IMG/VR virus record: IMGVR_UViG_2778261571_000008
Reading direction: 5' to 3' (one strand)
From: a virus
Lineage: Duplodnaviria > Heunggongvirae > Uroviricota > Caudoviricetes
DNA: 5,990 bases
Shown one piece after another: positions 1,405 through 5,990 of this stretch. The notes beneath the pieces were generated by a model, which saw nothing but the letters and a program-made list of their open reading frames with translations, searched no databases and was not told where the DNA came from. How positions within the stretch are numbered: the first letter of the stretch is position 1; the number at the start of each line of letters is the position of its first letter. The translations under genes were made by a program, and so were the position numbers.

Positions 1405-2310
1405 TTTCATCACCTCTTTAAAAAAGAGCGGTGGCTGAAAAATATGGAGGAAACAACCACCGCCGTGAACGAAAATAGGCTATATCGGAGAAGTTGATAT
1501 AAATATTTTAATCCCCGCGTCGTACGTGTGCAAACACGGCTTCATTGTCGAATATGGCGTTTTTGTGTAATTAGCAGATCTGGTTTTGATACCCGTCATC
1601 GATATTCAGTCAACTAAAAGGCTGGTTTTGGCCTAAGTGTTGAATGGCACTTTTGGAACGCGTCCGATTTCCACGGTTAATCAGCCACCACGATCCAGAC
1701 GGTAGAATGCGGCTTTCAGCCTGCTGAAATGTGTAACATTCCTGCGCTTTAACAAGATCGGGCTATCTGGTACAGATGGCGGCGGCGATCTGTATTTGGT
1801 GGCGGACTAATCTGCGCAGAATCCCGCTGATTTCTTGATGGCAATAAAGCTAACCATAGCGATTCTAAGCGCCTCATCTTTGCCGGTATGCAAACGGTCA
1901 GCCATGTCACATTGAGCGCGTCAGAGGCGCTACTGTGAAGCGGTGCTATAGCTGCGGCGTATCATTGCCAGCGTCATCGTCGTCACGGGAAAAGCTGTAC
2001 ATGCGGGGATCGAGATAGTCGATACAGAAAACCCCGTCATACAGGAAAGCGAGTGCCGTAGCGCAAGCGAAGGCACCAGGCATGTAGCTACGCGCTGAAT
2101 GCGAGTCACAACAGCTTAACAAAAGCACATACATCGCGATAACGCGGTAACACATCCGGCACCACATGCGTAACTGTGTGTTACCCCAGACGTGGCGCGG
2201 CTCTCAGGCTGATTTTGTCTTTTCCGGTCCCACATCTCGGGTACTTTCCAAAACTTTCTACTTTATAAAAATGGAGTAGAAAACAGAGTGAAATCTTTTT
2301 TTTCTGATTT

Positions 2311-2330
2311 ATCTGGTACCATCTGGTACC
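2311..2330. repeat. Perfect tandem 10-bp direct repeat ATCTGGTACC x2 (forward iterons)
   Basis: Read directly: atctggtacc atctggtacc. Each unit contains a GGTACC hexamer. Confidence 0.85.
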
Positions 2331-2366
2331 CATAGAATATATGTAACTACATCAATAACTTAAGTT

Positions 2367-2400
2367 GGTACCACATCCGGTCCCACATCGGTCCCACATC
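2367..2400. repeat. Three tandem inverted-orientation iterons (GGTACCACATC-C-GGTCCCACATC-GGTCCCACATC)
   Basis: Read directly; 11-12-bp periodicity, about one helical turn. The reverse complement GATGTGG(T/G)ACC matches the forward iteron ATCTGGTACC at 8-9 of 10 positions. Confidence 0.85.
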
Positions 2401-2423
2401 CTGCATCTGGTACCATTTTGACC

Positions 2424-2451
2424 AAAAAAAAGCCAACCCCGAAGGATTGGC
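2424..2451 (-). terminator. Rho-independent terminator downstream of the replication gene
   Basis: On the minus strand: hairpin GCCAATCC-TTCG-GGGTTGGC (8-bp stem, one mismatch, tetraloop) at 2451-2432, followed by eight T (plus-strand A-run 2424-2431). It lies 23 nt after the stop codon at 2477-2475. Confidence 0.75.
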
Positions 2452-2474
2452 GTGTTAAAAGTTAAACAATCTGT

Positions 2475-4064
2475 TTACTTGCTCGTAACCTCAGTCATCA
2501 CGTCACTTGCGCTTGCCATTTTGGCTACTTTCGCACGGTCACGCGCTGCCCTTAGTTCGTCGGCAACCTCAAACGGTTTTGCCTGTAGCCAGCGAACGTG
2601 ATTGCGGATAATCCATCCTCGCACTGGTTTTCCGTCAACCTTAACTTGTGGCGCGGCTACCATTCCCGCATCCTCAAACATACGGCGCTGTTTGTTCGTG
2701 ATCTGCGCGTCCACGTCTTCCAGAATGTACTCAGACAGATCTCTGTTGCTGATAATGTCAGAAGGCCAGTCAGCGATCAGTTCATCAAGATATACGCGTT
2801 CCAGCGGTTTGGCTGAGTTAATTGCCCGTAACTTATCCTCATCACACACAGGCGGCTGTTTAATATCGAACCCGCTCAGGTCACGCGTTGCCAGTTGCCA
2901 TCCTAACGCGTTAATCGCTTTGGGATCGCTTATCAGGTCATCAATGCGCTTCGCCATCTCCCTTGCCGCTTCCTTGCCGTATACATCCGCGTATTTGCCT
3001 GAGGTGTGACGGATGACAAACCAGCGGCGATCATGTTCGTCTATTGGCAGTGGGTTGTCATGGTTAGAACACACAAACCAGCGGCACGCGTTCCATTCTT
3101 CATACTTCGCGCCATATTTCACATTAACGCTGCGTACTGGCTCCGTTATCATCGCTTTAAGGCGATTAGCTGTACGGTATTGGCTGTTATCACCTTCCCG
3201 CACTTCGTCGCATGTTGCCAGAACCGCGCCAGCCAGTTCGCTGTTGAACTGCCCTTCAAGTAGCGCATGGATATTAACGCCAGATGCGCAGTTACGTCCT
3301 AACAGGTGTTTTAGGATGTCGCAGAAAGTTGTTCGACCAACGCCCTGAGTTCCGTTTGTGTAATGAAGAATGCCCCAGTGCGGTAGTACCTCAGGGTGCT
3401 GGATCATGTGCGCAATCCAGTTCACTACCGTTACCCACTTGTCACCGAAAAGCCAACGGCAATCATCATAGAATGCGCTGACGTCCGTTTCATTGTCTGG
3501 AAGCCAGATACGCTTTTTCCACAGGTTGAGGCATTTACGACCGCGCGGATCTTCGCAAATTACCGGGCGACCAGGTGCGCAGGTCAGGGCGTCAACAATC
3601 ATGCGCTTATCGCTCTCACGCCAGAGGCTAGTTGTCGGGACGGCCTTCATTTTCAACCCAGCACCCGCGCCGCCGCCAACGTCGATCATCGTTTTACTGG
3701 CGGCATTCATGTTTTTAAACTCTGACCATTTGAAATTACGGTAAGGCTCATCAAGATAAGCAACGCGTTCGCCGTCAGCCACCCAGACACATTTGGTCAG
3801 CATTTCATCCAACGTCATGATCTGCGGCTTCATGGCGTCAACGTCAAGCTGTTGCGGCTCCGTAGCTTTGACTGCGTTTTCCGCAATGCGCTGGCGTTCA
3901 GCTTCGCGCTCTTTGATCTGTTGTTCGGCGATCTCTACGACGCTGGCAAGCTCCTCGTCAGTAGGGCTAATGCGCACACCTGCGCTATTTAGCGGTATTA
4001 CATTTGCGATATTTTTTTCAGCTCTGACCTGGTCATCCGGGCCGTTTTGTGGCATATTAATCAT
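2475..4064 (-). CDS. Replication initiator: SF3 (D5/P4-alpha C-terminal-like) helicase-type protein, 529 aa, with atypical Walker A
   Basis: Motifs in canonical SF3 order and spacing: Walker-A-like HYTNGTQGVGRTTF (R codon at 3335-3333), Walker B AVLATCDEV (DE at 3209-3204), motif C WFVCSNH (N at 3065-3063). SD AAAGAGG 9 nt before ATG at 4064-4062. Followed by terminator and iteron origin. No separate primase domain was recognised by eye. Confidence 0.8.
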   Translation of the reverse strand: MINMPQNGPDDQVRAEKNIANVIPLNSAGVRISPTDEELASVVEIAEQQIKEREAERQRIAENAVKATEPQQLDVDAMKPQIMTLDEMLTKCVWVADGERVAYLDEPYRNFKWSEFKNMNAASKTMIDVGGGAGAGLKMKAVPTTSLWRESDKRMIVDALTCAPGRPVICEDPRGRKCLNLWKKRIWLPDNETDVSAFYDDCRWLFGDKWVTVVNWIAHMIQHPEVLPHWGILHYTNGTQGVGRTTFCDILKHLLGRNCASGVNIHALLEGQFNSELAGAVLATCDEVREGDNSQYRTANRLKAMITEPVRSVNVKYGAKYEEWNACRWFVCSNHDNPLPIDEHDRRWFVIRHTSGKYADVYGKEAAREMAKRIDDLISDPKAINALGWQLATRDLSGFDIKQPPVCDEDKLRAINSAKPLERVYLDELIADWPSDIISNRDLSEYILEDVDAQITNKQRRMFEDAGMVAAPQVKVDGKPVRGWIIRNHVRWLQAKPFEVADELRAARDRAKVAKMASASDVMTEVTSK

Positions 4065-4132
4065 GTTGAGTAGCCTCTTTTCGTTGCCTATTCACAGCCG
4101 TTCGATTCAGCACCGTAAACGGCTCCAACATT

Positions 4133-4161
4133 GCCCCGGTTGCGACGGGGCTTTGTTATTT
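4133..4161 (+). terminator. Terminator-like GC hairpin plus T-rich run, plus-strand orientation, in the leader between the second alpA-like gene and the replication gene
   Basis: GCCCCG-gttgcga-CGGGGC (perfect 6-bp GC stem, 4133-4151) followed on the plus strand by TTTGTTATTT (4152-4161). It overlaps the stop codon of the 4156-4401 gene. On the minus-strand mRNA the same hairpin forms but is not followed by a U-run. Confidence 0.3.
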
Positions 4162-4401
4162 CTGGTCTATGTATCTTCCGCATTGCTGTAAATCCCTCAT
4201 TAGCTCGTCTCTATGGATTTCGTACCACGCAAGCATGTCGGCTTTTAGCCATAACATCATGTTTCCGCGCCCTCGTGTCATAGGTTCCGGGAAATCCGGG
4301 TAACGACGCATTACGTGGTAAACTGAGCGCCGTGAGCGGTTAAGTAGTTCGCTGACATCTCTTACTGTCATGATGAAATCCTTCACCGTTTGGCCTTTCA
4401 T
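4156..4401 (-). CDS. AlpA-family / excisionase-like HTH DNA-binding protein (81 aa, or 71 aa from internal Met)
   Basis: Translation ...MTVRDVSELLNRSRRSVYHVMRRYPDFPEPMTRGRGNMMLWLKADMLAWYE fits the AlpA/Xis HTH pattern. SD AAAGAGGG 7 nt before ATG at 4401-4399; an alternative ATG at 4371-4369 has a GAAGGA SD. Stop TAA at 4158-4156 is 91 nt upstream of the replication gene. Confidence 0.7.
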   Translation of the reverse strand: MKGQTVKDFIMTVRDVSELLNRSRRSVYHVMRRYPDFPEPMTRGRGNMMLWLKADMLAWYEIHRDELMRDLQQCGRYIDQK

Positions 4402-4714
4402 GGTTCTGCCCTCTTTGTTAAAACTACACGATCACTGTAACCCATATTTTTAGCTATTCACAACTTTTCCCCATTTCAGCGACCATAAACGCAAAAACCC
4501 AGCGCTATGGCTGTTCGATGAATTGTTATCAGGATGTTTCCTATCCGACCAGTTAAACCAGCGACAGGTCAACATGTGACTATTGAGTTGCGTAATGATT
4601 TACTGCTGGAAAGGATAAACTCAGCTTCAGTGGCTCAATTTCCCGTTTTGCGTCTGTCAGGGCTATAAAATTCGTCTCAATTCTGTGAGATGCATCACAC
4701 TTTATGCCTGATAT

Positions 4715-4733
4715 TTATACAGTAACTGTATAA
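4715..4733. repeat. 19-bp perfect palindrome TTATACAGT-A-ACTGTATAA overlapping the LexA-like box
   Basis: Read directly. 9-bp arms with a 1-bp centre; chance expectation in 6 kb is about 0.02. It shares the ACTGTATAA arm with the LexA-like site, giving three alternating ATACAG/CTGTAT half-sites across 4717-4741. Confidence 0.8.
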
Positions 4734-4743
4734 CCATACAGGC
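4724..4743. promoter_or_regulatory. LexA-box-like site (SOS box), CTGTAT-N4-ATACAG
   Basis: aaCTGTATaaccATACAGgc: CTGT at 4726-4729 and ACAG at 4738-4741 with an 8-nt spacer; both 6-bp arms CTGTAT/ATACAG are perfect. It matches 14 of 20 positions of the E. coli consensus TACTGTATATATATACAGTA, including the whole invariant core. It is the only CTGT-N8-ACAG in the window. Confidence 0.45.
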
Positions 4744-5094
4744 CGAAAACCCGCTGTTTTACTGCCTATTTACCATAATGGATCTTGTGCGCACCATTTT
4801 CCGGTGATTGATTTCTGACCCTGTTTCGACGATAAAGCCATCCATTTTTCTCTGACTCGTAAAAGCTGGCATGAAATTTGATGTGGCGTGATTTGTTATG
4901 ATTGTGTTACCGCCAGTCTTGCCGCTGACGTCGGCTACGCGCGCGCATGTACATGTCCGAAAATTACCCCCATAAAAGCGCCCCTCATATAGTGCAAAAA
5001 CCCGGATGGCGCGGCTTTCGGCGGTTTTAGCATTGAAAACTAACTTCAAAAACGGCCCGCTATCGTTCGCTAACTACTCGCTAACCTCTCTGGC

Positions 5095-5388
5095 TTACTC
5101 GTCGATGTCAGCGCCACATGCCCTCAACTGGGCGTGTATATCCGCTTTGATTAACTTCAATCGACGGACGAAGCGCTGTTCATCATCGTTGCAGTTGTAC
5201 AGGCTGCCGTTTTCGCCTGTTGCCTTCATCGAAATCAATTTGTTGATCGTGCCTATAACAAGCTCACCAAAGCATCGAAGGGCGGTGCGTTTGGCTGGCA
5301 GTTGGCACGCTGGGCAAGAATGAAGGATATAAGCTGACCTTTCTGCGATCTCGCGGGCCATGCCGGTGATGATTTTTAAGCACAACAT
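5095..5388 (-). CDS. Hypothetical Cys-containing small protein (97 aa)
   Basis: ORF-track ORF with good SD GGAGAG 6 nt before ATG at 5388-5386. Contains HSCPAC (a CxxC pair) plus three further Cys. Preferred over the overlapping plus-strand ORF 5006-5323, which has no SD and a low-complexity translation. Confidence 0.5.
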   Translation of the reverse strand: MLCLKIITGMAREIAERSAYILHSCPACQLPAKRTALRCFGELVIGTINKLISMKATGENGSLYNCNDDEQRFVRRLKLIKADIHAQLRACGADIDE

Positions 5389-5517: not shown

Positions 5518-5862
5518 TTAGTCGAAGTAGCTGCCAATATCCGGTGTCCGGGTATCAGTTTTCCGGGTAGGCGTGGAGAAGTACGACTCCAGATCCGGCG
5601 TTTTAGGCCCGCGCTGGGCGTTGGCGGCGGGTTGCTTTTCTTCTGGCTGTTCCGGCTGTTTACCAGCGAAACGGCGCTCCAGTTGGTCCATCAGCACCAC
5701 CATCATTTCCTGGACCAGCTTTTCATCGGCTTTGTCCAGGCTTTCCAATACCATCGCCATCCCTTTGCGAAATTTAAGCTCAGCGGCGTCCGGTTCCGGT
5801 GCTGATTCGTTTGCTTTAACTGCCAGGGCGATCCGGCGTTTTGCTTCATCTAAAAAACTCAT
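5518..5862 (-). CDS. Hypothetical small acidic protein (orfB, 114 aa), translationally coupled to orfA
   Basis: ATG at 5862-5860 lies 5 nt after the orfA stop (TAA 5870-5868); its SD GGGGGA (5877-5872) is inside the end of orfA. C-terminal tail ...PDLESYFSTPTRKTDTRTPDIGSYFD carries two SYF motifs. No family recognised. Confidence 0.6.
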   Translation of the reverse strand: MSFLDEAKRRIALAVKANESAPEPDAAELKFRKGMAMVLESLDKADEKLVQEMMVVLMDQLERRFAGKQPEQPEEKQPAANAQRGPKTPDLESYFSTPTRKTDTRTPDIGSYFD

Positions 5863-5867
5863 TTTGT

Positions 5868-5990
5868 TTATTCCCCCATATAGAAATAGTCATCTAATTG
5901 ATCGCGTAGTTCTTTTGGTCCGTTAAACCATTCATCAATGGTCGCATTAAATACCGGATCGCCATCGAAGTAGGTTTTTGTGAAGTCGTC
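5868..5990 (-). CDS. orfA, C-terminal segment (enters window at 5990; stop TAA at 5870-5868)
   Basis: Reverse-complement translation from 5990: DDFTKTYFDGDPVFNATIDEWFNGPKELRDQLDDYFYMGE-stop. The first five codons are encoded by the 16-bp repeat and are in the same frame as the final DDFTK of the 1-322 segment. Joined product is 142 aa. Confidence 0.55.
   Translation of the reverse strand, partial: DDFTKTYFDGDPVFNATIDEWFNGPKELRDQLDDYFYMGE
5975..5990. repeat. Right copy of 16-bp terminal direct repeat TTTTTGTGAAGTCGTC
   Basis: Exact identity with positions 1-16. Confidence 0.9.

Follow-up and report, generated by a model that had tools for sequence, protein, structure and literature searches.

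A non-coding gap in a circular, satellite-like element of the CPZ-55 family as a probable mosaic of cis-acting control sites

A gap between genes and the family of the element

Positions 4402–5094 of the window (the whole stretch of DNA analysed, 5,990 nucleotides; virus record IMGVR_UViG_2778261571_000008) form a gap of 693 bp, flanked by the start codon of a gene for an 81-residue protein (ATG at 4401–4399, minus strand) and by the stop codon of a gene for a 97-residue protein (5097–5095). In the NCBI records the window corresponds to contig NLNA01000074.1. Its first and last 16 bases (1–16 and 5975–5990) are identical, so that the element is a circle of 5974 bp, and an identical circle (L010; L001–L034 are our labels for the related loci and contigs compared) was assembled independently from SRR3989754. 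All eight credible genes of the element lie on the minus strand. Judged from its sequence and that of its relatives, the gap is likely to be a non-coding, cis-acting control region built of separable DNA modules, in a plasmid-like, satellite-like element of the family of the cryptic prophage CPZ-55 of Escherichia coli K-12.

A first-pass annotation had described this stretch as about 690 bp without a convincing open reading frame (ORF), and we likewise found no credible gene in it. The two ORFs named there do exist, one on the minus strand (4759–5049, TTG start) and one on the plus strand (5006–5323), and neither matches a Pfam or PHROG family; the former crosses a junction near 4962 and is impossible in L013 and L014, where a stop codon closes the frame, and the latter is antisense to the gene of the 97-residue protein. 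Smaller ORFs of the gap have other lengths in the close relative L014 (56 instead of 37 and 34 instead of 41 residues), one being disrupted by a 1-nt indel. In L010, L011, L013 and L014 the gap was left without a gene by the gene caller of the collection, and none of the proteins of six related elements aligns across it. The possibility of a decayed gene was rejected, tblastn searches of the gap with all ORFs of six relatives having returned only spurious ORFs over blocks conserved as DNA. Window and L014 differ at one position of the 1590-nt replication gene, at none in the gene of the 81-residue protein, and at 24 in the gap, one of which is a 1-nt indel. Fifteen of their 25 differences over 2.5 kb sit in 4664–4761, around the LexA box described below; this cluster could be a locally hypervariable segment or a recombination patch.

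The element is not as gene-dense as had been stated, since only about 66% of it is coding and a second, larger gap extends over 1414–2474. The view of the block as non-coding and probably functional holds, and the first-pass annotation had missed that it is a mosaic, a set of cis-acting sites of which parts are conserved across the element family.

A search with the whole window returned nothing beyond partial matches, all of them in E. coli chromosomes. Segments of the gap have matches in the non-coding DNA of islands between eutA and eutB, beside the integrase gene intZ, which is the locus of CPZ-55 in K-12. Two complete 9-kb E. coli plasmids, deposited as "non-mobilizable" (L004, CP058022.1; L005, CP057168.1), have the common backbone plus a serine recombinase, and a look-up of the 81-residue protein led to further contigs of 6–7 kb (L012, L013 and L014), most with terminal overlaps, among them a 6.9-kb circle with a serine recombinase (resolvase) gene (L012). 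Searches for loci of the replication protein yielded one distant match in the viral collection and none in the genome collection. The family thus comprises chromosomal islands, 9-kb plasmids and 6–7 kb circles; its gene set includes an AlpA-type regulator, a replication protein with an origin, an HNH nuclease and often a small terminase, and no capsid genes. No integrase is encoded by the eight ORFs of the window; the chromosomal relatives carry intZ.

A terS leader without its gene, and the conserved core

The first-pass annotation had also missed that the right 130 bp of the gap are the leader of an absent terminase gene. Positions 4974–5094 (minus strand) share 86–93% identity with the DNA directly upstream of the small-terminase gene terS in L002, L003, L013 and L014. 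This leader, which ends at the stop codon of the 97-residue protein, contains a hairpin with a T-run (arms 5032–5023 and 5002–4993) and three phased TAGCG repeats (read on the plus strand as CGCTA at 5058, 5068 and 5079), which are more numerous in L013 and PEC145. An interpretation of the TAGCG repeats as replication iterons was rejected, as the iterons of the probable origin (see below) differ in sequence and the repeats, taken within the window alone, do not reach significance. Positions 4984–5026 are weakly similar (80–84%, E 0.6) to the Salmonella phages Salmp-p7, sal2 and sal3 (58–60 kb), at a site about 500 bp from the start of the record (2.5 kb in sal3); this likeness may reflect merely terminator-like sequence.

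The start of terS itself has been retained at 4935–4986 (minus strand), with a Shine-Dalgarno sequence (GAGGGG, 4986–4981), an ATG (4973–4971) and 12 codons (MGVIFGHVHARA) followed by TAG (4937–4935). The window is 99.97% identical to L013 over 1457–4962 and 98.7% identical to L014 over 1984–4962, and both matches stop at the stop codon of a gene for 109 residues, here termed X (BLAST breakpoint 4962). On the other side, 4962–5083/5139 of the window has its match in the DNA that directly precedes the Sf6-type terS of L013 and L014, together with the first few codons of that gene. In the alignment of the join (A2), L013 and L014 read GGAGG..ATGGGGGAATTGACG, the beginning of terS, and the window reads ATGGGGGTAATTTTCGGACA. 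Both terS and X are present in L013 and L014 and absent from the window, the two sides meeting at a short ATT repeat at about 4962–4964. The chromosomal island L003 carries the identical join, at 86% identity, and the form lacking terS therefore represents an established lineage rather than the product of faulty assembly or of a single deletion event.

The most widely shared block of the gap is a conserved core at 4909–4966 (minus strand), which also occurs in CPZ-55 of K-12, in pRHB04 and pRHB34 and in L012–L014, with flanks that cannot be aligned. In CPZ-55 it directly follows yffP (L006 7051–7644). The CPZ-55 product YffO (L006 7641–8057) is an Sf6-type small terminase (PF20901). The core consists of a family-specific half (4910–4932) with an inverted repeat (CGCCAG, 4911–4916, and CTGACG, 4925–4930) and a phage-like half (4940–4965; CGCGCGCATGTACATGTCCGAAAATT on the plus strand). 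Two decamers of the minus strand, TTTTCGGACA (4963–4954) and AGACTGGCGG (4919–4910), are invariant in six elements, while the spacing between them and the lengths of the copies vary by non-multiples of three; the 6-bp inverted repeat is retained with one-sided changes only and no compensatory pairs. This pattern fits protein-binding DNA rather than coding sequence or structured RNA.

A short-query search of phages found 4940–4965 at 25/26 identity in mEp021, mEp010, mEp013, mEp044, mEp554 and MagusPhagus, the six mEp021-group phages listed among the 14 Escherichia phage records that gave a match. The matching segment sits inside terS, at about codons 64–75 and in the same orientation as the genes of the window. 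The E-value of the window's own 26-mer is only 0.05; the core copy of L012 matches phage terS at the same site with 34/37 identities (E = 2e-5, seven mEp021-group phages), and the copy of pRHB34 gave nothing significant against phages. TerS of the mEp021-group phages is closely homologous to Sf6 gp1 (E = 8e-28), the small terminase of a headful packager, and belongs to one Pfam family with the satellites' own TerS proteins, YffO included. The core motif is absent from the terS genes of the elements themselves. It occurs in a single copy per element, always in non-coding DNA, and begins 0–5 nt past the stop codon of gene X. TerS of mEp021 aligns with the gap for at most 12 codons, which argues that the core is not a decaying copy of the gene. 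When viral contigs and species-representative genomes were scanned for the DNA pattern of the core, only chance matches in unrelated GC-rich DNA came up.

Since the pac site of P22 is located inside the terS gene (PMC9611059) and satellites that carry the packaging site of a helper are established (PMC6092414), the conserved core is probably a mimic of a pac-type packaging signal, with the mEp021-group phages as candidate helpers. A packaging site had been among the functions suggested for the block in the first-pass annotation; the family-conserved core of 26–57 bp with its homology to a phage terS segment speaks in its favor, but a lambda-type cosN is absent, the best match to GGGCGGCGACCT having two mismatches and lying outside the region, with counts at the level of chance. 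A comparison of mEp021 TerL with solved structures found no match, so that the packaging type could not be read from that protein.

Alternatively, the phage-like core might be a recombination scar, left by an old exchange between an ancestor of the elements and the terS gene of a helper phage and carried along directly after gene X. Such a scar would account for the invariable start of the motif 0–5 nt after the stop codon of X, for the range of retained lengths (12 to about 57 nt), for the family's module boundaries, which fall at or beside the motif, and for the lack of extra conservation of synonymous sites of the motif among the phages. It would not explain why the same short segment of terS has been kept in at least ten diverged elements in which the rest of the supposed terS copy is gone and the flanks cannot be aligned. 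Neutral decay would not leave two decamers invariant in six elements either, and the absence of the motif from the elements' own terS genes indicates that it is not a remnant of these. We therefore regard the scar as a serious but rather unlikely alternative to a packaging signal.

The Xer-type site and the adjoining LexA box

Within the gap lies a candidate XerC/XerD plasmid dimer-resolution site with a textbook core, which had been overlooked in the first-pass annotation. Its core (4768–4795, minus strand) consists of a XerC arm GGTGCGCACAA (4795–4785), the centre GATCCA (4784–4779) and a XerD arm TTATGGTAAAT (4778–4768). The pattern GGTGCGYRYAA-N6-8-TTATGKTAAAY has this one match in the window, and none was obtained in 200 shuffled sequences. 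Published sites are GGTGCGCATAA-TGTATA-TTATGTTAAAT for the chromosomal dif, GGTGCGTACAA-TTAAGGGA-TTATGGTAAAT for cer of ColE1 and GGTGCGCGCAA-GATCCA-TTATGTTAAAC for psi of pSC101. The XerC arm agrees with each of the three at 10 of 11 positions, the XerD arm is identical to that of cer (11/11), and the 6-bp centre is identical to that of psi, as seen in the full psi sequence. Xer cores are present at the homologous place in L001, L010, L013, L014, L032 and L033, and more than 20 small mobilizable enterobacterial plasmids match at 26–27 of 28–29 bases, always in unannotated DNA.

The best-conserved part of the gap, 4762–4887, is nearly invariant and surrounds the core. Plasmid Xer sites require accessory DNA on the XerC side, of about 180 bp, which is bound by PepA together with ArgR or ArcA; for PepA sites no usable consensus exists. 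The putative accessory region of the window (4796–4909, minus strand), which up to 4887 is almost invariant among the window, L014, L001 and L032/L033, contains a palindrome CATGAAATTTGATG (4870–4883) and a direct repeat TGTTA-N6-TGTTA (4894–4909) in an ArcA-type arrangement. The repeat is centred 106 bp from the XerC arm; psi has TGTTG-N6-TGTTA at 88 bp, on the same relative strand. This repeat is a hint, and only that, of an accessory function of 4796–4909.

The same Xer arms, with the centre CAGGAG, were seen in three unrelated metagenomic elements (L030 2804–2831, L031 3696–3723 and L034 41–68), which have in common an accessory region with a palindrome resembling an ARG box (TGCATAGTTATGCA) about 108 bp from the XerC arm. 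Their DNA on the XerD side differs, as expected for products of an exchange at Xer sites.

Where the Xer module is missing, family members have a serine recombinase in its stead. The resolvase gene of L012 is flanked by the core and the AlpA-like gene, in the position of the Xer module of the window, and L004 and L005, the 9-kb plasmids, likewise have a recombinase gene downstream of the core. The two arrangements fit a common need for multimer resolution. The Xer-type core would be a dimer-resolution site of the cer/psi type.

A predicted LexA (SOS) operator occupies 4724–4743. The LexA-like box reported in the first-pass annotation proved sound: its core CTGTATAACCATACAG (4726–4741) is an exact match to CTGTAT-N4-ATACAG in both half-sites, and with one mismatch allowed only 1 of 200 shuffled sequences contained a match. 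The box scored 17.3 bits, above all 300 shuffled windows and within the range of known boxes, with a matrix of our own that was built from SOS boxes; the shuffle test with the consensus pattern is independent of that matrix. In L014 the box reads CTGTATAAATATACAG (22.1 bits), with changed spacer and flanks and intact half-sites, none of the 15 substitutions in 4664–4761 having affected a half-site, and L001 retains CTGT-N8-ACAG. An adjacent, weaker LexA-like site (4705–4724) has only its right half in register. No element without the Xer module was found to have a LexA box. The box of the window lies 27 bp from the XerD arm, and we know of no such neighbour of cer or psi.

A weak candidate promoter directed rightward (4694–4723, plus strand; ATCACA-18-TACAGT, 8/12 match) would start transcription within the LexA box; the resulting RNA would cross the Xer site and be antisense to every gene. 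L014 and L001 have both hexamers without change, despite three to four changes in the spacer, and in L032/L033 the -10 hexamer is weakened to CACAGT. Matches of 8/12 quality occur five times in 900 bp, so that this match alone is not significant. The predicted LexA operator would control a local transcript, probably a weak, rightward, non-coding one.

Such a transcript, starting under SOS control at about 4730 and running through the Xer site and the core, could itself be the purpose of the region. A regulatory RNA might have a role comparable to that of Rcd of ColE1 cer, or might be directed as antisense at packaging genes of the element or at terS mRNA of the helper, with complementarity to the latter at 25 of 26 positions. 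The placement of the LexA box at about +1 to +18 of the candidate promoter, the hexamers being unchanged in three variants, would be in line with this, as would the near invariance of 4762–4887, an A-to-G change in L014 which preserves a plus-strand hairpin (4740–4767) as a G-U pair, and the orientation of the phage-like motif, by which RNA of the plus strand would be antisense to terS of the phages; there is precedent for a small RNA that originates within an Xer site (PMC4393325). Against it, the promoter match is weak and of a kind common by chance, both LexA box and -10 hexamer are damaged in L032/L033, and most family members that bear the motif lack the LexA/Xer module. No Rfam match was found in the region by covariance-model search at E-values up to 1 (a scan of the whole window gave a single sub-threshold match, outside the gap), folding z-scores of three segments of the gap (+1.72, -0.82 and -0.07) show none to be more stable than its shuffled versions, the value of -0.07 applying to the RNA in question, and scanning revealed no plus-strand terminator. 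The long structured leader or P4-like immunity RNA that had been proposed for the block is not borne out by these results, nor by the conserved hairpin, in which changes are one-sided and compensatory pairs absent. A regulatory RNA as the product of the region, one like Rcd included, appears quite unlikely. In a more specific version, the SOS-induced non-coding RNA from about 4730, 25/26 complementary to terS mRNA of mEp021-group phages, interferes with the small terminase of the helper; the LexA box and the phage-like motif would then be linked, because SOS also induces the helper prophage. The satellites known to us interfere with the helper terminase by proteins, and we consider this version very doubtful.

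Instead of resolving dimers, the Xer-type core might serve integration at the chromosomal dif site, as in integrative mobile elements exploiting Xer (IMEX) such as the CTX-type phages, and would then be the attachment site which the first-pass annotation had listed among its candidates. The element does combine a perfect Xer core with the lack of an integrase, and relatives can be chromosomal; however, the centre GATCCA is that of the plasmid site psi and departs from the dif centre (TGTATA) at five of its six positions, the core agrees with those found in small plasmids, and the chromosomal relatives reside at eutA/eutB beside a tyrosine integrase, not at dif. The element also has its own replication protein and iterons, and the free circle was assembled twice. 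No sequence is shared between the window and the ends of the integrated relatives, and a search for attachment-site repeats in the sampled flanks of these relatives, which was crude and could have missed a short core, found none. Integration at dif is thus highly improbable, and dimer resolution is retained as the candidate function of the site.

A hidden gene for a small protein, such as the plus-strand ORF of 44 residues at 4534–4668, which L014 retains intact except for a single amino-acid substitution, or, past the LexA box, a short toxin induced by SOS (E. coli does have small toxin genes under SOS control), is scarcely credible, as the ORF lacks a usable ribosome-binding site (AGGA abuts the ATG), a family match and a gene call, L001 has only its last third and differs upstream of 4621, and the plus-strand ORFs past the LexA box comprise just 6–9 codons or cross the junction.

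The left end, the rest of the element and likeness to known systems

At the left end, a candidate promoter, an operator-like element and a ribosome-binding site precede the gene of the 81-residue, AlpA-like protein (4402–4463, minus strand). The candidate promoter, obtained in a relaxed scan (8/12), has a -35 hexamer TTGTGA (4463–4458) and a -10 hexamer TACAGT (4439–4434) separated by an 18-nt spacer; the invariant operator-like 11-mer GTGATCGTGTA occupies 4435–4425, and the Shine-Dalgarno sequence GAGGG 4413–4409. Hexamers and 11-mer are conserved in L012, L014, L015 and the 78%-identical plasmid pRHB04 (TTGTTA-18-TATTGT), consistent with promoter activity of 4463–4434. Upstream of it, a weak hairpin with a T-run (CAGC..GCTG GGTTTTTGCG; 4482–4511, minus strand) falls below the threshold of the terminator scan. 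At the same place in the alignment (A4), relatives have clear intrinsic terminators, namely CCCCGC-CGCCGCA-GCGGGG-TTTT in L012 and L015 and CCCGGT-TTAAAC-ACCGGG-TTTTTT in pRHB04, and the element at 4482–4511 probably insulates the promoter of the AlpA-like gene from upstream transcription. The left end reads as terminator, promoter and operator of a regulator-replication operon.

The adjoining stretch 4512–4693, with only four differences between window and L014, is conserved only in very close relatives, homology to L001 beginning at 4621, and holds unstable small ORFs (plus strand 4534–4668, minus strand 4450–4575). A motif GGGTTTT(T)GC..TATGG (minus strand) is present in the gap in three copies exactly 251 bp apart (4482–4503, 4733–4754 and 4986–5004). 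These may be weak terminators; their equal spacing is unexplained, and a tandem duplication of 251 bp was rejected as its origin, residual similarity between the units being weak (z 0.9–2.9).

The eight genes, compared with families by Pfam and PHROG searches, are, on the minus strand throughout, one for 142 residues spanning the contig junction (about 5871 to 328), one for 103 residues, an HNH_3 nuclease gene (682–1212), a gene for a 65-residue HTH_17 protein of the excisionase/AlpA type (1216–1413), the gene for a 529-residue DUF5906/primase-like replication protein (2475–4064), that for the 81-residue HTH_17 AlpA-like protein (4156–4401), and two without a family match, coding for the 97-residue protein (5095–5388) and one of 114 residues (5518–5862). 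The HNH_3-type nuclease gene, beside that of the 65-residue helix-turn-helix protein, is kept across the family and may serve in helper interference, packaging or homing. Downstream of the replication gene, the second non-coding region (1414–2474), which is larger than the gap studied here, contains iteron-like repeats, ATCTGGTACC in four copies (1764, 2310, 2320 and 2404) and CCGGTCCCACATC in three to four (2223, 2376 and 2387); iterons span 2223–2416, and the region is probably the replication origin.

Each module of the gap is of a familiar kind, and what is new is their combination and the links it suggests. Like cer of ColE1 and psi of pSC101, the window has a core of 28 bp, in which XerC and XerD arms of 11 bp each enclose a 6-bp centre, located on a small circle of multicopy type, with conserved DNA on the XerC side and a TGTTA repeat near the psi position on the same strand. 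It differs from them in its accessory region, which lacks an ARG box and similarity to psi, in the LexA box at 27 bp from the XerD arm, and in its host, which is satellite-like and not a plasmid of the ColE1 or pSC101 type.

With the Gram-negative phage-inducible chromosomal islands (PICIs), for example EcCICFT073 (PMC6092414), the window shares an AlpA-type regulator ahead of a replication gene with its origin, a single direction of all genes, the lack of capsid or other structural genes, and a short non-coding copy of packaging-related DNA of a helper, which for the window is a candidate helper; islands with an integrase occur in both families, on our side among the relatives of the window. 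Whereas EcCICFT073 has copies of a lambda-type cosN, the window has none, its copied DNA stemming from inside terS of a presumed headful phage. The window also lacks an integrase and island-end attachment sites and is circular and plasmid-like, with an Xer site. Expression of alpA in EcCICFT073 is not SOS-controlled (PMC6092414), whereas the window has a LexA box nearby; in its gene set, the family of the window resembles such islands.

Like the P22-type pac within terS (PMC9611059), the core is a short asymmetric sequence from a small-terminase gene, and the mEp021 group has an Sf6-type TerS; unlike pac of P22, the sequence of the element is not part of a gene and adjoins an inverted repeat specific to the family, and the pac site of the mEp021 group is unmapped. 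CPZ-55 itself (intZ, yffL–yffS) has the conserved core, after yffP, and in YffO a TerS of the Sf6 type as found in siblings of the window; however, it is an integrase-bearing insertion between eutA and eutB, lacks the Xer/LexA module and has little other DNA in common with the window. [quoted passage not shown] Our literature search found no paper linking CPZ-55 to satellites or PICIs, and none linking Xer sites to phage satellites.

Taking the gap in the order of the gene strand, we infer the following arrangement. The leader of a small-terminase operon would come first, terS and X having been lost except for the ribosome-binding site, the ATG and 12 codons. The core of about 57 bp, half of it copied from terS of the mEp021 group, would be recognised by the headful terminase of the helper, which would package concatemers of the element. 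At the cer/psi-type site, the XerC and XerD recombinases of the host would resolve plasmid dimers, and the LexA operator beside it would place a local transcript, probably weak, rightward and non-coding, under SOS control. Finally, a terminator, a promoter and the invariant operator-like element would serve the AlpA-like regulator and the replication gene.

Several points weigh against this arrangement. The mEp021-group phages show several synonymous differences within the motif and no visible extra constraint on it, their pac site is unmapped, the paper on these phages gives no packaging mechanism, and the collection of viral contigs yielded no related element. Only 12 nt of the motif are retained in L001 and L032/L033. 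The Xer accessory region has no recognisable ARG (ArgR) box and no similarity to the accessory DNA of psi. The LexA box, kept in three of four variants, has been lost in L032/L033, where one CTG is gone (CCGT), and beside it there is no strong promoter, the standard scan finding none and the relaxed one only the weak 8/12 candidate. About 180 bp (4512–4693) are without an assigned function.

The relationships found suggest that the "cryptic prophage" CPZ-55 of K-12 belongs to a family which also exists as plasmids of 6–9 kb and which has the appearance of phage satellites. Plasmids of this family are seemingly kept monomeric by the Xer system of the host or by a resolvase of their own. The copied terS segment names a candidate packaging signal and, in the mEp021 group, a candidate helper phage; mEp021 (mEpimmI) phages have been reported to be common in the human gut. 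If these assignments are true, a packaging signal together with a helper would explain the spread of these "non-mobilizable" small plasmids.

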